10,864 nucleotides of DNA, taken from positions 1-10,864 of the IMG/VR virus record IMGVR_UViG_2534682158_000020. One strand, 5' to 3'. The stretch is from a virus (lineage: Duplodnaviria > Heunggongvirae > Uroviricota > Caudoviricetes). The notes beneath the pieces were generated by a model. That model saw only the letters and a list, made by a program, of their open reading frames with translations. It was not told the origin of the DNA and did no database searches. Both the position numbers and the translations under genes were made by a program. Of this stretch, positions 1-10,832 are shown piece by piece. Each line of letters opens with the position of its first letter. Position 1 is the first letter of the stretch.

Positions 1-1242
1 ATGGCACGAAAAACCACCCCACTAACCATTACGGAGATCAAAAACGCACGGCCAGGGGAAAAGGAATACACCCTGCAGGATGGCGGAGGATTATTTCTTC
101 TGGTGAAGCCCTCCGGATCAAAAATCTGGCGTTTTACGTACTACCGTCCGGCAGATAAAAAACGGACTATTATCAGCCTTGGATCGCTGAATGATGTTTC
201 CCTGTCTGATGCCAGAGAGCGACGGAATGAATACAGGTCACTCATAGCAAAGGGAACTGACCCACAGGACCACGAACGCCGGAAACGTGAAGCAGAGAGC
301 CGGAAAAAGGGCAACACGTTCGAAAAAGTTGCCTCGGACTGGTACGAGATGAAAAAAGGCCAGAATCTGGCTTACAACACGATTAAGGATATCTGGCGAT
401 CCATGGAAAAATACGTATTCCCGTACATCGGAAACACGCCAATAGATACCCTCACCGCTCGCCGCTTTGTTGAGATACTCACCCCCATTAAGGCGCGTGG
501 CAACCTGGAAACCCTGAAACGCGTTTTACAGCGCATCAATGAGGTGATGGATTTTGCTGCCAACAGTGGTCTGATTGACATCAACACCGCCGCGAACGTC
601 CGCAAGGCATTCCCCTCACCCACCAAAAAGCACATGCCAACCATCCGACCGGAACAGCTACCACAGCTAATGCACGATTTATCGGTCGCCAGCATAGAAC
701 GGCAAACCAGATTGCTGATTGAGTGGCAACTGCTGACCGTAGCACGCCCAGCCGAAGCAGCCGCCGCACGTTGGGAAGAAATAGATCTCGATGCCGAAAC
801 CTGGACGATTCCAGCCGGACGCATGAAGATGCGCCGTGACCATGTGATCCCCCTTTGCGGTCAGGCTATGGCTGTACTGGAAACCATGAAGCCAATCAGC
901 GCACACAGGGAACACGTTTTTCCCAGCCTTAAAAATCCGATGCTACCAATGAGCAGCCAGACCGCTAACGCTGCATTACGCCGGATGGGATACGCTGGTG
1001 TGCTGGTGTCTCACGGATTACGCGCCATATTCAGTACAGCAGCGAACGAGGAAGGATTCGAGCCGGACGTAATCGAGGCCGCACTCGCACACGTGGACAC
1101 AAACGAGGTAAGGCGGGCATATAACCGAAGTAACTACCTGGAAAAACGTGTAGTACTTATGCGCTGGTGGGGTGAATTTGTGGAAGCCGCAGCAACCGGA
1201 GTGACCATAGCCAGTGGTAAAAGGGGTATCCGTGCGGTGTAA
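1..1242 (+). CDS. int: Tyrosine site-specific integrase, P4/CP4-57 family
   Basis: 413-aa ORF starting at ATG at position 1. N-terminal region (KNARPGEKEYTLQDGGGLFLLVKPSGSKIWRFTYY) resembles the arm-binding domain of P4-type integrases; C-terminal part carries HxxR (HGLRAIFSTAAN) and a catalytic-Tyr region (RAYNRSNYLEKR). Upstream RBS, att and target gene lie outside the window. Confidence 0.9.
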   Translation: MARKTTPLTITEIKNARPGEKEYTLQDGGGLFLLVKPSGSKIWRFTYYRPADKKRTIISLGSLNDVSLSDARERRNEYRSLIAKGTDPQDHERRKREAESRKKGNTFEKVASDWYEMKKGQNLAYNTIKDIWRSMEKYVFPYIGNTPIDTLTARRFVEILTPIKARGNLETLKRVLQRINEVMDFAANSGLIDINTAANVRKAFPSPTKKHMPTIRPEQLPQLMHDLSVASIERQTRLLIEWQLLTVARPAEAAAARWEEIDLDAETWTIPAGRMKMRRDHVIPLCGQAMAVLETMKPISAHREHVFPSLKNPMLPMSSQTANAALRRMGYAGVLVSHGLRAIFSTAANEEGFEPDVIEAALAHVDTNEVRRAYNRSNYLEKRVVLMRWWGEFVEAAATGVTIASGKRGIRAV

Positions 1243-2037: not shown

Positions 2038-2126
2038 AACAATTAACCTGCTGCGAAAAAATTGGATCAGTGCAGGGGAATTATATCAACCGTGTGACGA
2101 AGCGCCACAATTGCCGGATAACAGGC

Positions 2127-2153
2127 AAAAAAAGACCACCGTGACAGGTGGCC
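2127..2153 (-). terminator. Rho-independent terminator, minus-strand orientation
   Basis: On the - strand: GGCCACC / GGTGGTC stem (7 bp with one G-U), 6-nt loop, followed by TTTTTTT (plus-strand A-run 2127-2133). Confidence 0.45.
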
Positions 2154-2385
2154 CTTCGACACAAGTTACACGTTATCCCCAACGTATGAGCATTGCCAAC
2201 AATGCCACATTTGCGGCTGGTGGGCAAAGCGTAACCGGAAAAAAATTCCGGTGGGGCTATTCCTGCTCTTTGTCCTTGCGTCGCTGGCGACGTTTGATCT
2301 CATGCAGAATTTTTTCAGGTAAGAATCCTGCTGATTTATTTTCTGGTAGCAATGGTTTGTTATCTGTCTGCTTCCTGGTCATACA

Positions 2386-2583
2386 TCAACCTTTTGGTTC
2401 GTTACGTTTCCATACCTGCAATGGGCGAGTTTTCCTGTACTCTTTTAGGAATTTCTCAAGAGCAAAAGCACATGGTGAGAATCTTTCTGACTCATGCTCA
2501 TGCGCTATCTTGCTGCGCCGTCTTTTCCGTGAAGGTGATGTTTTTTCGGTTGATTCGTTGTTGGTCATTCTGTGTACCTGCAT
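2386..2583 (-). CDS. Hypothetical small basic protein (65 aa) downstream of the RHH-like gene; weak call
   Basis: ORF 42 nt after the RHH-like stop on the same strand. No clear Shine-Dalgarno and no recognisable family. Confidence 0.2.
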   Translation of the reverse strand: MQVHRMTNNESTEKTSPSRKRRRSKIAHEHESERFSPCAFALEKFLKEYRKTRPLQVWKRNEPKG

Positions 2584-2625
2584 AGCAATGCGCCGGAGTT
2601 CCTCACACCACGGCGCTGATAGTTA

Positions 2626-2931
2626 TTATTCTGATTCTTTGGCCTTGCGGCGCTGGAGTTCTTCACGTGCGACGGTGACGAGCTGCCCGATCTCCTCGGC
2701 GGCTTTGACTCCGATTTTTTCCACCTGCGCCAGTGCATCGAGCGAAGAAACCAGGGGATTTTCTCCGCTTCCTTCTGCCTGGCGCCTGGCGATCTCCCCG
2801 CGCATGGCGGTTACTATAAATCCGGCGTTGCTTTCGCCGTCCAGTTTTACGGATTCCATGCCTTCAATAACATCATGCGGGATCCGAGCTGTCAGTGATT
2901 GTGATTTTGTGTTTTTTGAACCTGTAGCCAT
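2626..2931 (-). CDS. Putative DNA-binding protein, possibly ribbon-helix-helix (Arc/CopG-like); candidate regulator of the divergent early operon
   Basis: ATG at 2931 with GAGAGG 7 nt upstream on the - strand, 101 aa. N-terminal segment SLTARIPHDVIEGMESV fits a beta-strand then helix RHH pattern. Fold assignment is by eye only. Confidence 0.55.
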   Translation of the reverse strand: MATGSKNTKSQSLTARIPHDVIEGMESVKLDGESNAGFIVTAMRGEIARRQAEGSGENPLVSSLDALAQVEKIGVKAAEEIGQLVTVAREELQRRKAKESE

Positions 2932-3020
2932 CTGTAATCCTCTCAATGAAAGTGTAAGACAATATACACACAAAAAGTATTACATAAAAGCATTGACATG
3001 TAAGCCACCTATAAACAAAG
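2932..3020. promoter_or_regulatory. Divergent promoter region between the RHH-like gene and the early operon leader
   Basis: Perfect -35 TTGACA at 2993-2998 on the + strand, but the nearest TATAAA (3010-3015) is only 11 bp away, so the exact promoter is unresolved. AT-rich and free of credible ORFs. Confidence 0.35.
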
Positions 3021-3290
3021 TTACTTACACCTTATTGGTGCAAGGTTCAGAAACGACGAAACCCGGCAGTGCGCGAACACTAACCGGGCTTCTAACCACC
3101 AGCGATAGAAAGATTATCGAGGTAGCTATGTTAAATCATACCACACACCCGCAAGGGCGGGACTTGCACAACCTGAATAAACCCGATGTAAAAAACCTGT
3201 TGCTCGCCACTGCCAGCCAGGGCTATGATTTATACGCACCAGCAAAATCTGGTGCCGGGATTGGCGTCCTGGTATTTAACGAAGCGCACA

Positions 3291-3313
3291 ACACGCGCCC
3301 TGCGTGTTTTTTT
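3291..3313 (+). terminator. Intrinsic terminator inside the early-operon leader (attenuator-like)
   Basis: Stem ACACGC (3291-3296) / GCGTGT (3302-3307), loop GCCCT, then a 7-T run (3307-3313). Lies about 160 bp upstream of the first early gene. Confidence 0.6.
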
Positions 3314-3475
3314 GTGCCGGATAGTCACACCTTATCAATGGTGGGCTGTATGGGGGCGGAGCAATCCGCGCCGGGTTCTTCGTTAACCGGTTACGCCAAC
3401 CCCGTACAGTCCACCGCCAGCGAAATTGGCGTTTCCTGCGGTGGGTTTATTAACCCTAACGAAGAGGCTGCCAAC

Positions 3476-3664
3476 ATGGCTACAGTCCCTACCCTTGTAC
3501 ATTCCCAAACTGCCTTTATCTGGCGCTTTATCATCTTTGGCGCGTCAGAATCCCAAATCATCCACGTCACCGCATGGACGGAACGCGAAGCGCGTAACCA
3601 TTGCCCGTCCGGTTGTGTCGCTGTATTCGCCGCCCGTATTCGTCAGGGGGTGAGTCATGCATAA
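3476..3664 (+). CDS. Icd/Kil-like small protein (host cell division inhibitor family), first gene of the early operon
   Basis: 62-aa ORF, ATG 3476 with AGAGG 8 nt upstream. Motifs FIWRF ... TEREAR ... VFAARI match my recollection of Icd-like proteins of P4-type elements. Stop overlaps the next start. Confidence 0.55.
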   Translation: MATVPTLVHSQTAFIWRFIIFGASESQIIHVTAWTEREARNHCPSGCVAVFAARIRQGVSHA

Positions 3665-3889: not shown

Positions 3890-4189
3890 ATGAAAAAGAA
3901 AAATACTGGCGTTAATGCCAGCGGCCCCGCTCGTCCTGAATTTATGAACGGCGATATTTACCGCGATAAATATGGCGGCATGGTAACGATTAAAGGCGTG
4001 GCAGAACGGCGCATCACTTACCGCCGTGATGGCTACGAATATGACTGCGTGATGCCTGTTTATCAGTTCCGGAGTGATTTTTCACTGATACAGGCCACAC
4101 CACGCAGACAGCCCACCAGCTACGCAAAGGCATGGGCAAATATTCAGAAAATGAAAAACATGATTAACGCATTCAGGGGCAAAAAATGA
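3890..4189 (+). CDS. Hypothetical protein (99 aa)
   Basis: ATG 3890 with GGAG upstream; its stop overlaps the primase start (ATGA at 4186-4189). No family recognised. Confidence 0.6.
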   Translation: MKKKNTGVNASGPARPEFMNGDIYRDKYGGMVTIKGVAERRITYRRDGYEYDCVMPVYQFRSDFSLIQATPRRQPTSYAKAWANIQKMKNMINAFRGKK

Positions 4190-5991
4190 AACTGGCACCG
4201 AACTTAAAAAAACAGCCACACGACAAAATGACCGAAGTCATTATTTTTGCGGGTAGTGATGCCTGGGCGCACGCGAAACAATGGCAGGAGCAGGACGGGC
4301 GACTTGCTGGCGACAATGTTCCGCCTGTATGGCTTGGAGACAGCCAGCTTGACGAACTGGCAGACCTGAAAATTATCGACGATGGTCGCTATTGTGTCCG
4401 GCTGTACAAGGCAGGCCACATCAAGCCGTCAAATATTAATGCCATCGGGCAAAAGCTGGCGGTGGCAGGTGTACGGGATGCGAATTATTACCCTGAGGGA
4501 ATGCACAGCCAGAAGCGGGAGAACTGGCACGAATATCTGGAGCGTGAGCGCCAGAATCTTTCTGATGGTCTGGTTATTCAGCTTCCTGTTAAGAAAAAAA
4601 CAGAAGACAGCGCCGCACCACTGGCGCTTAACCAGATGGGAGCAAGCCAGCGCGGCGAAGTTCTCCTGGCACGTTATGGCGGTGAACTGGCAATCAATGC
4701 GGACTCTGACACCGTTCACCACTACAACGGCGTTGTATGGGAGCCGGTACAGGATAAAGAGTTACAGCGGGCTATGGCGCAGATTTTTATTGATGCGGAG
4801 ATCAGTTATTCGCAGAACGCCATCAAATCGGCGGTCGATACAATGAAGTTAAGTTTGCCCGTAATGGGGAATACCGCCCGTAACCTGATTGGATTCAGTA
4901 ACGGTGTTTTTGATACCCGGACAGGCGATTTTCGGGAGCATGACAAAAACGACTGGCTGTTAATTGCCAGTGAATTACCGTTCAGCCCGCCAGCAGAGGG
5001 GGAAACGCTGGCAACGCATGCGCCGAATTTCTGGAAATGGTTGCGCCGTTCGGTGGCTGAGAATGACCGTAAAGCGGATCGCGTACTGGCGGCGTTATTC
5101 ATGGTGCTGGCGAACCGATACGACTGGCAGTTATTTCTTGAGGTAACGGGGCCGGGTGGAAGCGGTAAAAGCGTAATGGCGGAGATTTGCACCATGCTGG
5201 CGGGTAAGGCCAACACGGTATCGGCAAGCATGAAGGCGCTGGAAGATGCCAGGGAACGCGCGTTAGTGGTTGGATTTTCGCTGATTATCATGCCGGATAT
5301 GACCCGCTACGCTGGTGATGGCGCAGGAATTAAGGCCATTACAGGCGGTGACAAGGTGGCAATCGACCCGAAGCATAAAGCCCCCTACTCAACACGCATT
5401 CAGGCGGTCGTGCTGGCGGTGAACAATAACGCCATGTCATTCAGTGACCGCAGCGGGGGGATCTCACGTCGTCGGGTGATATTCAATTTTTCGGAGGTTG
5501 TACCGGAAAACGAACGCGACCCCATGCTGGCAGAAAAAATAGAAGGAGAGCTGGCGGTTGTGATTCGCCACCTGCTTACTCGTTTTTCTGACCAGGACGA
5601 AGCTAAACGCCTGCTGTATGAGCAGCAGAAATCAGAAGAAGCACTGGTGATAAAACGCGAGGGCGATTCGCTGGTGGACTTCTGCGGCTATCTCATGTCG
5701 TCGGTAATGTGTGATGGTCTGTTAGTGGGTAATGCCGAAATTATTCCGTTCAGTCCGCGCAGGTATCTTTATCACGCCTATCTGGCATATATGAGGGCAC
5801 ACGGATTCGGTAAACCTGTAACACTGACGCGCTTCGGTAAAGATATGCCGGGGGCAATGGCGGAATATGGCAGGGAGTATATGAAACGGAAAACGAAGCA
5901 CGGTTTGCGTTCAAATGTGACCCTTACAGAGGATTCAGAAGACTGGATGCCATCATGTGCATCGGTCACAAATGACGATGGAAAAAATTAA
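4186..5991 (+). CDS. Primase-helicase replication initiator, P4 alpha-like (satellite Pri-Rep)
   Basis: 601-aa ORF with AGGGG RBS. Walker A motif GPGGSGKS in the central region; overall resemblance to phage/plasmid primase P4-family proteins; immediately followed by the iteron cluster. Confidence 0.9.
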   Translation: MKLAPNLKKQPHDKMTEVIIFAGSDAWAHAKQWQEQDGRLAGDNVPPVWLGDSQLDELADLKIIDDGRYCVRLYKAGHIKPSNINAIGQKLAVAGVRDANYYPEGMHSQKRENWHEYLERERQNLSDGLVIQLPVKKKTEDSAAPLALNQMGASQRGEVLLARYGGELAINADSDTVHHYNGVVWEPVQDKELQRAMAQIFIDAEISYSQNAIKSAVDTMKLSLPVMGNTARNLIGFSNGVFDTRTGDFREHDKNDWLLIASELPFSPPAEGETLATHAPNFWKWLRRSVAENDRKADRVLAALFMVLANRYDWQLFLEVTGPGGSGKSVMAEICTMLAGKANTVSASMKALEDARERALVVGFSLIIMPDMTRYAGDGAGIKAITGGDKVAIDPKHKAPYSTRIQAVVLAVNNNAMSFSDRSGGISRRRVIFNFSEVVPENERDPMLAEKIEGELAVVIRHLLTRFSDQDEAKRLLYEQQKSEEALVIKREGDSLVDFCGYLMSSVMCDGLLVGNAEIIPFSPRRYLYHAYLAYMRAHGFGKPVTLTRFGKDMPGAMAEYGREYMKRKTKHGLRSNVTLTEDSEDWMPSCASVTNDDGKN

Positions 5992-6277: not shown

Positions 6278-6523
6278 GTGACAACGAAGCACGCAAAAAA
6301 ACCACAATCTCACGCCCTTGATTTGACAGAACACTGGCTGAGGGTGGCGATAAAAATCATCGATCGCAACGCGGGAGAAGGATACGCGAAAGCACATCCT
6401 GAACTGATAAGCGCATTCATGACAACGGCGGCGGCAAACTTTGCCACGCTGACAGAACGGGAGATTGCCGAAGCGGAACAGGTGACAACCATCAATGTTA
6501 AAACCGGAGAGGTGGAATCATGA
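6278..6523 (+). CDS. Hypothetical protein (81 aa), translationally coupled to ssb
   Basis: GTG 6278 with GAGG 8 nt upstream; stop TGA overlaps the ssb ATG (ATGA at 6520-6523). No family recognised. Confidence 0.55.
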   Translation: MTTKHAKKPQSHALDLTEHWLRVAIKIIDRNAGEGYAKAHPELISAFMTTAAANFATLTEREIAEAEQVTTINVKTGEVES

Positions 6524-6942
6524 CAGCACAGATAGCGGCTTACGGGCGGCTGGTGGCTGACCCGCAGTTAAAGACCACCAGCAAGGGCACACAAATGGCG
6601 ATGGCGAGTATGGCGGTTCCCCTGCCGTGCAGCCAGGCAGATGACGGAACGGCGACGATGTGGTTATCCGTCCTGGCGTTTGGCAGACAGGCCGACGCAC
6701 TGGCAAAGCACCAGAAAGGCGAACTGGTGAGCGTGGCGGGTAACATGCAGATAAGCCAGTGGACAGGCCAGAACGGCGAAACGCGGCAGGGCTGGCAGGT
6801 TATCGCAGACAGTGTAATCAGTGCCCGAACGGCGCGACCGGGCGGCAAAAAAGGCCAGCAGGGCCAGGCTACTGACGCGCTGAACAGAGCAAAACAACAG
6901 GCGGGAAATGATGATCCGTACGGGGATGACATACCGTTTTAA
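6520..6942 (+). CDS. ssb: Single-stranded DNA-binding protein
   Basis: 140 aa; OB-fold region aligns by eye with E. coli SSB (LVADPQLKTT..., WLSVLAFGRQADALAKHQKGELVSVAGNMQISQWTGQNGETRQ); Gly/Gln-rich linker; acidic C-terminal tail ending DDIPF. Confidence 0.85.
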   Translation: MTAQIAAYGRLVADPQLKTTSKGTQMAMASMAVPLPCSQADDGTATMWLSVLAFGRQADALAKHQKGELVSVAGNMQISQWTGQNGETRQGWQVIADSVISARTARPGGKKGQQGQATDALNRAKQQAGNDDPYGDDIPF

Positions 6943-7151: not shown

Positions 7152-7213
7152 GATGCCGAACAAGGCAGATGATAAAATTAACGCGACACTTTTACTAAGT
7201 ATCAAGAGGTTAT

Positions 7214-8254
7214 ATGAGTGATTTATATTCGCCAGCTATGTTAATACAGGTTGTTAATGCCGAAGATATTCAATGGCAGATTAATTCTTTATTTATAAAC
7301 CTTTTTTTTAAGCGAGTCGTTACATTTGAGACGCGGGATATTGCGCTTGATATTATTGACGATCCAGACATCCCGATGGCTGCGTTTTGTTCACCTATGG
7401 TTGGTAGCAAAGTCTCACGCGATGAAGGCTACGAATCGAAAGTAATTCGTCCTGGCTACATGAAGCCAAAAAGTAGTATCGACCCAAATAAAATAGCCGT
7501 TCGTCAACCAGGCGTATCACCGGAACAATTCAATGCATATTCATCACGCAGTTTCAAAATAAAGCGAGCGTTAGTAAGACAAGCGCAGGCAATTCGTGCG
7601 CGTATTGAGTGGCTTGCTGTTCAGGCGGTTACAACGGGGAAAAATATCATTGAAGGCGATGGAATTGAACGTTATGAACTGGACTGGAATATAAAACCAC
7701 AAAATATTATCACGCAGTTCGGCGGTACGGAGTGGAGCGGTAGAGATTTATCAACATTTGATCCAAACGATGACATCGAAGAGTACGCAGAAATCAGCGA
7801 AGGTACTACAAATATCATCGTAATGGGCCGCAACGTATGGAAAAAATACCGCGCCTTTAAAGCAGTAAAAGATTGCCTTGATACTCGACGGGGATCTAAT
7901 TCCGTTCTTGAAACGGCCCTGAAAAATCTTGGGGATTCTGTAAGCTTCAAGGGTTACGTTGGCGATGTTGCTATTGTGGTATATAGCGGACGTTATACCG
8001 ACGAGGACGGAACTGAAAGATATTTCCTTGATCCTGATTTGATGGTGCTTGGCAACACATCATTACAGGGCATCGTTGCCTACGGTGGCATTCAGGATCC
8101 TGAGTTAATCAGAATGGGGCTTACTAAAGCCGAACTTGCGCCGAAAAATTACATCGTACCAGGTGATCCGGCTATTGAGTACGTACAAACGCACTCTGCA
8201 CCACAGCCAATACCGGCCCGCATCAATCGTTTTGTTACCGTTCGCATTGGTTAA
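7214..8254 (+). CDS. Major capsid protein, lambda gpE family
   Basis: 346 aa versus 341 for lambda gpE, with long collinear matches to gpE as I recall it: GGTEWS.RD.ST.DP.DDIE.YA, NIIV, FKAVK..LDTRRGSNS.LETA.K.LG..VS.KG..GDVAIVVYSG.Y, MVLGNT, YG.IQD. RBS AGAGG. Confidence 0.92.
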   Translation: MSDLYSPAMLIQVVNAEDIQWQINSLFINLFFKRVVTFETRDIALDIIDDPDIPMAAFCSPMVGSKVSRDEGYESKVIRPGYMKPKSSIDPNKIAVRQPGVSPEQFNAYSSRSFKIKRALVRQAQAIRARIEWLAVQAVTTGKNIIEGDGIERYELDWNIKPQNIITQFGGTEWSGRDLSTFDPNDDIEEYAEISEGTTNIIVMGRNVWKKYRAFKAVKDCLDTRRGSNSVLETALKNLGDSVSFKGYVGDVAIVVYSGRYTDEDGTERYFLDPDLMVLGNTSLQGIVAYGGIQDPELIRMGLTKAELAPKNYIVPGDPAIEYVQTHSAPQPIPARINRFVTVRIG

Positions 8255-8263
8255 GGGGGAGCA

Positions 8264-8605
8264 ATGGCTACTCATTACACTGAACTCATGGCTGGCACTG
8301 AAGCACTGGTTACTACGTTGGGGATATTTTCAGCTAATAAAGGGGTAATTCCTGCATTTACGCCACTGATGCAAGAAGATGCAACTGGTGCACTGGTGGT
8401 ATGGGATGGAACGAGCGCAGGCAAAGCTGTTTATGTTTCCGCTGTACAAATCGATACAGCGACAAAAACGCAGGCTCAGGTTTATAAAACCGGCGTCTTA
8501 AATGTTGATGCTCTGAACTGGCCTGAATCTGTAACACAACTATCAGCAAAAGTTGCTGCGTTTGTTGGCTCAGGTATTTCTGTTCAGCCGCTGGCTCGTG
8601 TGTAA
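8264..8605 (+). CDS. Head decoration protein, lambda gpD family
   Basis: 113 aa versus 110 for lambda gpD; matches gpD motifs TPLM, LV.WDGT..G.AV, YK.G, WPE, AF.G..IS. Starts 10 nt after the capsid gene with a GGGGGAG RBS. Confidence 0.9.
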   Translation: MATHYTELMAGTEALVTTLGIFSANKGVIPAFTPLMQEDATGALVVWDGTSAGKAVYVSAVQIDTATKTQAQVYKTGVLNVDALNWPESVTQLSAKVAAFVGSGISVQPLARV

Positions 8606-8616
8606 AGGGGGATACA

Positions 8617-9000
8617 ATGCAGAATGATTACAATGACCTTAAGCCAATTGCCGAAATGATGTACCCGAATCAAGCTGTAGAGGAATTAAAAGCTATCGCT
8701 GACAAAATGTGTTTAAGCGAGCGCCTTGTTGATATGAATCAGGTGATGGAAATTACAACCCTGAGTCGTCGTACACTGCTAAACCTTGAGGCTAGTGGAG
8801 AGTTCCCGAAGCGTGTGCAGGTTACGGAAGGGCGTAAGGCCTGGTATTTAAGTGAAGTGATCGACTGGATAAATAATATTCCTCGCGCTTCTGAATATTG
8901 CCGCGTACCTGTCCCAAAAAAGCCAGATGCGGCGCTATGCCTCAAGATTGAGCGTGTACGCCGCAATGCACGGGATGGTCGCTATAAGCTGATTGGTTGA
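8617..9000 (+). CDS. AlpA-family HTH protein with an N-terminal extension (127 aa)
   Basis: C-terminal half (MNQVMEITTLSRRTLLNLEASGEFPKRVQVTEGRKAWYLSEVIDWINN) has the AlpA/Vis-type motif. ATG 8617 with GGGG RBS, 12 nt after the gpD-like stop. Confidence 0.7.
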   Translation: MQNDYNDLKPIAEMMYPNQAVEELKAIADKMCLSERLVDMNQVMEITTLSRRTLLNLEASGEFPKRVQVTEGRKAWYLSEVIDWINNIPRASEYCRVPVPKKPDAALCLKIERVRRNARDGRYKLIG

Positions 9001-9029
9001 TGAAATTAGGGCCCGCTCTGGCTGGCGGG

Positions 9030-9140
9030 TCCTTTCCGGCGATCCAGAACGTTACGGGGCGGCTGACGCGCGGGTTTTCGCTATTTATGAGCATTTTAAG
9101 GGGACTGGTGGTGGTTTTGTTGTTCGTTGTATCTGTATGA
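9030..9140. other. Lambda-type cos site (cosQ-cosN-start of cosB)
   Basis: CGCGGGTTTTCGCTATTTATGA (9069-9090) is identical to lambda positions 13-34 as I recall them. Upstream TCCTTTCCGGCGATCC...GTTACG resembles the lambda right end. The inferred 12-nt cohesive-end position reads GGGCGGCTGACG (9057-9068). An R3-like element follows (GGTTTTGTTGTTCGTTG, about 9112-9128). Confidence 0.7.
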
Positions 9141-9216
9141 ATAATAAGAGAAAAGCACAATCAATACACCAACCTGAAACAGTAATTAAGTTGTGGTATC
9201 AATGAAATTGCACCTG

Positions 9217-9744
9217 ATGAACAAAAAAAACATGGCAAAAAGTTGCCGTGTAAGCGCCACTGCGTTCGATAAGTGGGGAGTGATTCCCGTCGAGCGTAAG
9301 GGCCGCGAGGCGTTTTATGATGTCGCCAGTGTAATAGATAATCGGGTTAACAATGCAATCAGCCAGATTACAAACGAAACGGGCGAGATTGATGATGATG
9401 AACTCCTACGAGTCAGGATCAGATTGCTGACAGCACAGGCAGAGGCGCAGGAGCTTAAAAACGAGCGCGAACGCGGCGACGTTATTGATACAGCGTTTTG
9501 TATATACGTGCTTTCAAAATTGGCGAGTCAGATTTCTTCAATCATGGACAGCCTGCCGCTTACCATGCAAAGGCGCTTCCCACAGATGACCCCCGCCATG
9601 CTGGATGGCCTGAAAAAAGAAGTTGTCAGAGCCTGTAACGCATGCACAAAACTTGATGAAAACATCCCGCGAATGCTGTCCGATTATCTGATGGAAACTA
9701 CCGGAAATGTGCCTGATAAGTTTCAGCCGGATAAAGACAAGTAA
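9217..9744 (+). CDS. Terminase small subunit, lambda Nu1 family
   Basis: Collinear with lambda Nu1 as I recall it: N-terminal NKK...FD.WG.IPV..KG.E..YD.A.VI; central LTAQAEAQELKNERERGDVIDTAFCIYVLSKLA..ISSIMDSLPLTMQRRFP; C-terminal KLDENIPRMLSDY. Start is ambiguous (in-frame GTG 9193, ATG 9202, 9217, 9232; none has a strong RBS); 9217 aligns best with the Nu1 N-terminus. Confidence 0.85.
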   Translation: MNKKNMAKSCRVSATAFDKWGVIPVERKGREAFYDVASVIDNRVNNAISQITNETGEIDDDELLRVRIRLLTAQAEAQELKNERERGDVIDTAFCIYVLSKLASQISSIMDSLPLTMQRRFPQMTPAMLDGLKKEVVRACNACTKLDENIPRMLSDYLMETTGNVPDKFQPDKDK

Positions 9745-9980
9745 CGTAGTGCACAATGACCGAAGCCAGTTTACTGACTGGCTTTCAGCGTTGCGCTGGT
9801 GGGCGTTATGCGTCAGTAATGAACAAAAAATAATCGAAATCGACACCGAAAAATAAAACATCAAGTCATATCAATATATTGCATTGGTGGTGATGACGAA
9901 TAAAAATGCAAAAACTAGCCTTTTTCCGCGATGCTCCCGCCCCGTGGCAGGGCACCCCACCAGGAGGACCCGCCATCACT

Positions 9981-10277
9981 ATGGAGGCCATGACCATGAC
10001 CGAGACCGAAGCGCTCGGGATAATCCGCAGTATTACCGGAATCAGCCAGCAGGCTGACGAACAGGCCACGCAGCCGGATACAGTCACCGCTGAAAATTAC
10101 GCGCGTGTGATGGCTGAGGTGATGCGCCGTGACGGTATCGAGCTTAATGGCGTGGATATACGCAACATACGCACCAGAGTTCTGGAGATGTTGTCGTACC
10201 GTCGCCGCGTGCAGATGTACCAGGAGAAAGAAAAAATTACGTACCAGTGGAAGAAGCCGGAGCGGTTACGGCGATAA
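9981..10277 (+). CDS. Hypothetical protein (98 aa, or 93 aa from ATG 9996)
   Basis: ORF downstream of the Nu1-like gene. AGGAGG at 9962-9967 is 13 nt before ATG 9981; GGAGG at 9983-9987 is 8 nt before ATG 9996. No family recognised. Confidence 0.5.
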   Translation: MEAMTMTETEALGIIRSITGISQQADEQATQPDTVTAENYARVMAEVMRRDGIELNGVDIRNIRTRVLEMLSYRRRVQMYQEKEKITYQWKKPERLRR

Positions 10278-10832
10278 ATATTGGTGGGAGGGAGGATCAA
10301 ATCCTTGCAGCCATGGCTGCCCGGGACCGACCGCCGACCCTTGTTCACATCGCCGCAGGTTCGAAAACTTTTTTGGGAAGATGTGCACGGGATTGATAGA
10401 TGAGGTCTATCTATAAAAAATCACAAAATCCGCGCCATTGCTGGATCCGCCAAAAATCCCCCACCTTACGGCAGACAAAGAAAACGCGAATTATGGGCCT
10501 GTTGCAGAGAAAAAAGGTCTCACTAGTTTTGCGCATCCTGGCATCGAGGTTCGTCAGCCTCCCATCAGCAACCAGATAACTAATCTCGCTGGTGGGCATG
10601 ATGCCGATATGGGGACTCCCATAACGGTTTATCCGTGATCATCCACCAGCTTGATGACAGATAACAGGGAGTCATAACGGTTAAAATTGTATACTTTTGC
10701 AGCAAACATTTTTAGCTACACGTTAAGCTATACGATTTTGAGTTTAAATTTTTCAAATTCAATTAAATCAAATGGTTATACGCACTTTTTGAATACTCTC
10801 GTGCACCAAAAAATCCCCAAAAAAAAAACACT

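Follow-up and report, generated by a model that had tools for sequence, protein, structure and literature searches.

The question raised by this locus is whether the cohesive end of a satellite cos site decides which helper terminase can cut it. The window (the whole stretch of 10,864 nucleotides that was analysed) harbors at positions 9027-9201 a site which, judged from its bases, is a lambda-type cos site with predicted cutting and end structure. It begins with a cosQ-like heptamer GGGTCCT (9027-9033, plus strand) located 30 nt to the left of where the top strand is predicted to be nicked, and it corresponds to lambda in sequence and spacing; the role of cosQ in the end of packaging is taken from lambda (PMC9026076). 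This is followed by a cosQ-cosN spacer (9034-9054, plus strand) of lambda length and variable sequence, and by the 16-bp cosN (9055-9070), the predicted nicking site of a lambda-type large terminase (TerL), composed of a 12-mer between two CG pairs according to the definition in PMC9026076. The predicted 12-nt 5' cohesive end is GGGCGGCTGACG (9057-9068, plus strand; GGGCGGCGACCT in lambda), the overhang being deduced from homology and conserved spacing. To its right lie the 22-mer CGCGGGTTTTCGCTATTTATGA (9069-9090, plus strand), which equals lambda bp 13-34, and a satellite-specific cosB core TGGTGGTGGTTTTGTTGTT (9106-9124, plus strand; bp 50-68 from the nick), which we propose as the putative binding site of the small terminase (TerS). 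The order in the window is thus ...CGGGTCCTTTCCGGCGATCCAGAACGTTACG / GGGCGGCTGACG / CGCGGGTTTTCGCTATTTATGA GCATTTTAAGGGGAC TGGTGGTGGTTTTGTTGTTCG..., with the homology to lambda right of cosN ending after bp 34 and an interval between cosN and terS of 145 nt, versus 190 nt in lambda.

Comparison was made with phage DE3 (lambda), in which a 12-nt 'cos site' is annotated. MAFFT aligns positions 9057-9068 to GGGCGGCGACCT without gaps, and the mismatches (8, 9, 10 and 12) are confined to the right half. The sequence-only reading had reported four of 12 bases differing from lambda next to a lambda-identical 22-mer; the DE3 alignment confirms the lambda sequence used for that comparison, the altered predicted end and the 22-mer. 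BLAST favours another alignment of the 12-mer, with a T inserted after C7, one C deleted and a T12->G substitution, i.e. three events versus four substitutions, and this leaves the predicted overhang length unchanged. The same reading had expected a change in cosN symmetry, which did not hold: 10 of the 16 bp are rotationally symmetric, the same as in lambda, with one symmetric pair lost and another gained. The cosN-type pattern, with up to three mismatches allowed, occurs once in the window versus 0.03 expected. No promoter-like sites were found in 8900-9300, and the sole terminator-like match in this region is on the minus strand, within terS.

Gene content indicates that the window is occupied by a PICI-type satellite of E. 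coli of about 10.7-10.8 kb. The left end of the island is formed by an integrase gene (ORF 1-1242, plus strand), which is annotated as such beside tRNA-Pro/yejM in relatives; in E. coli relatives the island is located between tRNA-Pro/yejM and yejO. Further to the right are an Ash-family region (inside ORF 2111-3664), a D5-type primase-helicase (4186-5991), an SSB (6520-6942), and, all on the plus strand, a lambda E-like major capsid gene (7214-8254; Pfam Phage_cap_E, E=1.5e-40), a lambda D-like decoration gene (8264-8605; Pfam HDPD, E=2.6e-16) and an AlpA-family HTH gene (8617-9000; Pfam Phage_AlpA, PHROG 2790), which ends 27 nt before cosQ. The cos is directly followed by the gene for a TerS of 180 amino acids (9202-9744, plus strand), a full-length homolog of lambda Nu1 (Pfam Phage_Nu1, E=2.8e-24; PHROG 57 over residues 2-173). 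All island modules are intact open reading frames. Inspection of ORFs and Pfam matches showed that TerL, portal and tail genes are absent from the window. Gene content, size and specific insertion site are those of Gram-negative PICIs, and a full virion gene set is absent. Classification as a cf-PICI, which would carry TerS, TerL, portal, protease, capsid and head-tail connector genes, was rejected; only the E-like, D-like and TerS genes are present. The window is nearly identical to contig AFDR01000018.1 of GCA_000225045.2 (one mismatch in 10,864 bases), and close relatives are found within gene E of lambda-like prophages.

Several further features of the island were observed. ORF 2111-3664 (517 amino acids, TTG start) is probably not one gene; its counterparts in relatives are a 178- or 486-amino-acid Ash-family protein plus Icd-like genes. 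Within this ORF two sub-variants, L406 and L407, depart from the window sequence and give no alignment over about 2228-3085. A 93-amino-acid ORF at 9996-10277 (PHROG 1561) is kept 3' of terS in all relatives and could be part of a packaging or interference module. Exact matches to the IHF consensus WATCAANNNNTTR are found at 7200-7212, 9869-9881 and 10766-10778 (three versus 0.56 expected); one of these is just upstream of the capsid gene start and none is in cosB. The packageable range of lambda is about 38-51 kb. Four island units of 10,864 bp amount to 43.4 kb, which lies in this range. Packaging of multimers into heads of helper size, which is reported for EcCICFT073, would agree with this; small heads made from the island's own E- and D-like genes are possible.

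A lambda-style cosB, with the R3-I1-R2-R1 arrangement for Nu1 and IHF, was sought between cosN and terS and rejected. Within 9069-9201 there is no match to the lambda R sequence at up to three mismatches and none to the IHF consensus, and a repeat search of cosB gave no R-like repeats. Instead, the motif GGTGGTGGTTTTGTTG, situated within TGGTGGTGGTTTTGTTGTT, occupies the R3 position and has zero entropy in 83 of 83 aligned family members; lambda-like phages carry GGCGTTTCCGTTCTTC in its place. In lambda, R3 covers bp 50-65, and Murialdo and Feiss put the R3 equivalent of PICIs at the same position (PMC9026076). The divergence of cosB next to a satellite-encoded TerS, which had been pointed out from the sequence, thus extends to the whole aligned family.

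The window TerS shares 39% identity with lambda Nu1 over the full length, from the N-terminal HTH region through the C-terminal TerL-binding region, and its counterpart in relatives is annotated 'terminase small subunit'. The first 60 residues occur in 13 variants in the family, and the recognition-helix region SCRVSATAFDKWG in the conserved DNA-binding domain is unchanged in all common variants. The most variable part of the protein is formed by the last ca. 45 residues, which in lambda Nu1 bind TerL (ca. 40 codons at 9622-9744 in the window); this C-terminus may follow different helper TerLs. The satellite TerS and the invariant R3-position motif always co-occur among the 83 aligned members. 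It is more likely that specificity resides in the satellite cosB motif and the TerS, possibly including its variable C-terminus, than in the 12-mer.

We consider it probable that the locus represents a single PICI cos in which the lambda cosQ and cosN are combined with a cosB and TerS of the satellite's own, with the 12-mer as a natural allele and not as the determinant of specificity. The satellite would retain those cos parts that are used by the helper TerL (gpA), namely cosQ, the nick-flanking bases of cosN and the 22 bp right of cosN, and in place of the lambda cosB it would carry a single site, at the R3 position, that is particular to the satellite. The satellite TerS would bind this site and its Nu1-like C-terminus would recruit the lambda-type TerL of the helper. 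Nicking by TerL at positions 12 bp apart would produce the 5' overhang GGGCGGCTGACG and its complement, packaging would run rightward to a later cos where cosQ and cosN would end it, and after injection the two ends of the molecule would anneal to each other. Such an architecture is in line with published work on PICIs, which keep lambda cosQ and cosN and possess a cosB of their own, probably with just one R3-like site, spanning bp 48-65 (PMC6092414, PMC6739421, PMC9026076).

A different role of the Nu1-like protein would be that of an Rpp, pairing with the TerS of the helper, which in turn brings TerL. Rpp-type PICIs share the layout of a cos followed by the specificity gene, and Rpp mimics the interface of the TerS DNA-binding domain (PMC6739421, PMC9026076); the N-terminal and central regions of the window TerS align to Nu1 as well, which makes a heterodimer conceivable. 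However, Rpps have 139-154 amino acids and do not possess the C-terminal region of ca. 40 residues that binds gpA in lambda Nu1 (PMC9026076), whereas the window protein has 180 amino acids and is aligned through this region. A phmmer search of the window TerS against PDB chains gave no meaningful match, RppC included. The full-length alignment with Nu1 thus argues that the window TerS is not an Rpp, and we regard an Rpp-like action as unlikely.

The 12-mer itself varies naturally. Satellite sites were collected with the satellite TerS as anchor, i.e. independently of the 12-mer, which gave 84 loci (80 from IMG/VR, three from E. coli and the window). The lambda type GGGCGGCGACCT is present in 63 of these, followed by GGGCGTCAGGCG in eight, GGGCGGCAGACG in five, GGGCGGAAGGCG in four, GGGCGTCGACCT in two, and GGGCGACGACCT and the window allele GGGCGGCTGACG in one each; the flanks are conserved throughout. 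Sites anchored on lambda Nu1 (n=78) comprised 66 lambda-type sites, eight with GGGCGGAAGGCG and four singletons. A scan of IMG/VR for G9/G12 variants yielded 90 sites (68 GGGCGGAAGGCG, 14 GGGCGTCAGGCG, four GGGCGGCAGGCG, three GGGCGGCAGACG and one GGGCGTCAGACG), most of which are in prophages with a Nu1 93-100% identical to that of lambda downstream, and then gpA. An earlier degenerate scan of IMG/VR, which is no census, gave lambda-type sites only among the matches listed.

Variability was compared in 83 aligned satellite cos sites and 76 lambda-like cos sites. In both samples variation in the 12-mer is limited to positions 6-10 and 12; its positions 1-5 and 11 and the flanking CG pairs are essentially fixed. 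The cosQ heptamer and the 22-mer are nearly invariant in the two samples, the left arm varies most in the cosQ-cosN spacer in either of them, and the symmetry of 10 out of 16 bp is retained across the alleles compared. Alleles on identical flanks differ at four to five positions at once. A single 60-nt right-flank haplotype is found with three different 12-mers, and the 31-nt left flank of the window itself also with the lambda 12-mer (L003). This pattern in prophages and satellites agrees with the cosN variation that PMC9303873 attributes to Vahanian, Oh, Sippy and Feiss (2017, Virology 509:140), cited there for natural cosN variants of lambda-like phages. Such natural variants of lambda-like phages likewise vary inside the 12-mer and keep its first bases and the nick-flanking bases, and another cos variant, GGGCGGCGCGCT, is known from mEp213/LLS (PMC12315714). 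In the literature text searched, GGGCGGCAGGCG was the only non-lambda allele encountered, once and in an unrelated gene-editing preprint; the other four were absent.

Some loci in these samples have additional features. GGGCGGAAGGCG (IMG/VR L208-L293; L401 of Escherichia sp. E1V33) is a common alternative allele, present in about 10% of prophages whose Nu1 has 98-100% identity to that of lambda, and occurs beside gpA proteins up to 100% identical to lambda gpA. The minus strand of L177 (IMG/VR 2617271340_000010) has at site 1537 a second cos-like site with the lambda 12-mer and another right flank (…CGCGGTTTTTATCTGTTTATGAAAATTTTCCTG…), which lies near a satellite of the window's family and probably belongs to another PICI type in the same region. 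In L004 (7028-9691), L125 and L127 the E/D/HTH module is replaced by a ClpP-protease/capsid fusion gene, and the left cos arm differs (…GGGTCCTCCCGGTGGAGTGGCCTTACCACG) and resembles that of prophages with a Nu1 ca. 82% identical to that of lambda. The 12-mer, cosB and TerS are unchanged in these three loci, and cos thus forms a junction between exchangeable modules.

According to the sequence-only reading the altered 12-mer might define which helper terminase can cut the site, so that only a helper with a matching TerL or cos of its own would serve. The four differences indeed cluster in the half-site beside cosB, the window allele was not found among sequenced phages in INPHARED or in the IMG/VR scans, and non-lambda alleles are commoner in the closest TerS clade (18 of the 36 loci) than at lambda-Nu1 sites (12 of 78), although this clade comparison counts related, non-independent sequences. 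The terminases argue otherwise. The gpA proteins encoded beside a GGGCGGAAGGCG cos in 27 prophages are 98.0-100% identical to lambda gpA (median 99.4%), and those of a GGGCGTCAGACG and a GGGCGTCAGGCG prophage are 98.9% and 99.4% identical, respectively; a special terminase would therefore not be needed for variant 12-mers. Taking the prophage around an embedded satellite as its presumed helper, we found that two of five satellite/prophage composites are mismatched in their alleles, and that the three matched ones have the majority allele on either side. In the complete genome of E. coli WP8-S17-ESBL-12 the prophage has a lambda-type cos and cosB and a gpA identical to that of lambda in 640 of 641 residues, and the satellite embedded in it has GGGCGTCAGGCG; in IMG/VR 2923302340_000009 the prophage carries GGGCGGAAGGCG and the embedded satellite the lambda 12-mer. 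The C-terminal TerS type of the window co-occurs with four different 12-mers. Three possible correlates of the 12-mer were rejected in this way: TerS type, as one type has several alleles, flank haplotype, as the 60-nt right flank has three, and gpA sequence, in view of the 98-100% identity beside variant alleles. Furthermore, the positions that vary are those that vary in phages, and the bases flanking the nicks do not change. Selection of the helper by the 12-mer is unlikely, and the assignment of specificity to its right half appears very improbable to us; to judge from these comparisons, TerL evidently does not read the interior positions that differ. The alleles are shared by lambda-like prophages and satellites, and short-patch recombination, acting across the conserved flanks, has probably spread them.

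The change in end compatibility expected in the sequence-only reading was not supported either. Ends need to be compatible only within one molecule, where the two arise from a single cos sequence, and circularisation of the satellite itself is not hindered by a different overhang. A variant of the compatibility argument is that the interior of the cohesive end is a selected barcode, with cassettes swapped between phages and satellites and the window allele as a new compatibility type. If true, unlike overhangs would stop the chromosomes of satellite, helper and rivals from annealing to each other, or would evade a recogniser of cos ends. This would suit the differences at four to five positions at once on identical flanks, the common occurrence of non-lambda alleles in the TerS clade of the window and the embedding of satellites in prophages with a different allele, but random pairing at the observed allele frequencies would give about as many mismatches as the two in five composites. 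We hold such a barcode for highly doubtful.

The window allele itself is one substitution (A8->T) away from GGGCGGCAGACG of related satellites. It is present with identical flanks in seven out of seven assemblies that encode the exact window TerS, of which four are NCBI drafts and three are from SRA, and its recurrence in seven independent assemblies shows that T8 is not a sequencing error. These assemblies include two island sub-variants of which the left 2.2 kb is only 94% identical, and all belong to a single island lineage, which occupies the same chromosomal site throughout. Searches elsewhere gave no T8 sites: there was no match in INPHARED phages and none in JGI metagenomes, and the IMG/VR scans (NGACG; G9/G12) returned only A8 relatives and other alleles. 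Among GTDB species representatives, 28 of 29 matches were chance occurrences in GC-rich genomes and the remaining one is a true cos with GGGCGGAAGGCG in Escherichia sp. E1V33. With the flank context of the window as query, 5,426 complete E. coli genomes gave no full-length match above 93.9% identity, a result that applies to T8 on the window's own flanks. T8 is a genuine, rare and lineage-restricted allele. Because it is limited to one lineage, its tolerance is extrapolated from the G or A found at position 8 elsewhere. That the island is an immobile remnant, with T8 as a neutral or damaging mutation in a disused cos, would agree with vertical inheritance of one lineage at one chromosomal site and with the single published test, in which the TerS-encoding E. 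coli PICIs (IHE3034, 18098) were not mobilised by resident prophages (PMC6092414), but is hardly probable considering that every module is an intact open reading frame, that no change is seen in cosQ, the bases beside the nicks, the 22-mer or the motif at the R3 position, that position 8 also varies among otherwise conserved sites, and that two sub-variants with a recombined left end share T8.

The preferred reading of a lambda cosQ and cosN joined to a satellite cosB and TerS moves the focus away from the sticky end, and suggests that the lambda-type large terminase is apparently blind to the middle of the 12-base overhang. The specificity module of this widespread E. coli satellite family is likely to consist of a single R3-position site and a complete Nu1-type TerS of its own, as far as can be deduced from conservation. 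Such a module would be a third route to the packaging motor of a helper, besides a copied helper cos and Rpp adaptors. The lambda-type cos of a PICI is already known, and T8 is a rare allele of it; the more interesting threads are the pairing of a Nu1-type TerS with an R3-position site and the way in which prophages and satellites share overhang alleles like cassettes. The natural 12-mer alleles on identical flanks provide a ready series to probe what lambda terminase reads in cosN.

Among characterized systems, the lambda cos with gpNu1/gpA shares with the window the sequence and spacing of cosQ, the nick-flanking bases, the 10/16 symmetry, bp 13-34, the position of terS directly downstream and a full-length Nu1 homolog. 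Unlike lambda, the window has a 12-mer that differs at positions 8, 9, 10 and 12, lacks R3-I1-R2-R1 and the IHF consensus, has the shorter distance between cosN and terS (145 instead of 190 nt) and is devoid of a TerL gene. The Rpp-type PICIs, such as EcCICFT073 with cos1/RppA (PMC6092414, PMC6739421, PMC9026076), are likewise satellites of lambda-like phages with lambda cosQ/cosN and a different cosB, probably with a single R3-position site, and have the specificity gene just right of cos. The window gene differs from the 139-154-amino-acid Rpps in being a complete Nu1-type TerS with a TerL-binding tail, and in comparison with EcCICFT073 the window has one cos rather than two and additionally possesses the E- and D-like head genes. 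As in the pac-type SaPIs (TerS-S), the satellite would supply its own small terminase to steer the helper TerL, but SaPI packaging is of the pac (headful) type whereas the window has a cos with predicted defined ends. Fillol-Salom et al. 2018 (PMC6092414) also noted TerS in two E. coli PICIs, from strains IHE3034 and 18098; that resident prophages did not mobilise these islands counts against the preferred reading.

Finally, helper-embedded PICIs such as 11capE (Tommasini, Mageeney and Williams 2023, PMC10111431) resemble those relatives of the window that are likewise located inside prophage gene E. One of these, L412 of E. coli WP8-S17-ESBL-12 (11049-23119), has two cargo genes, one encoding a TIR domain and the other for abortive infection, and its cos region is matched at 99% identity or more in 33 complete E. 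coli genomes. In contrast to the helper-embedded PICIs, the window island resides in the chromosome, at the tRNA-Pro/yejM site, and its integrase is a different one. The relatives inside gene E encode primase, SSB, E-like capsid, D-like decoration and HTH proteins followed by cos and TerS, in the gene order of the window, and whereas 11capE was described without terS (PMC10111431), these embedded relatives are annotated with it.
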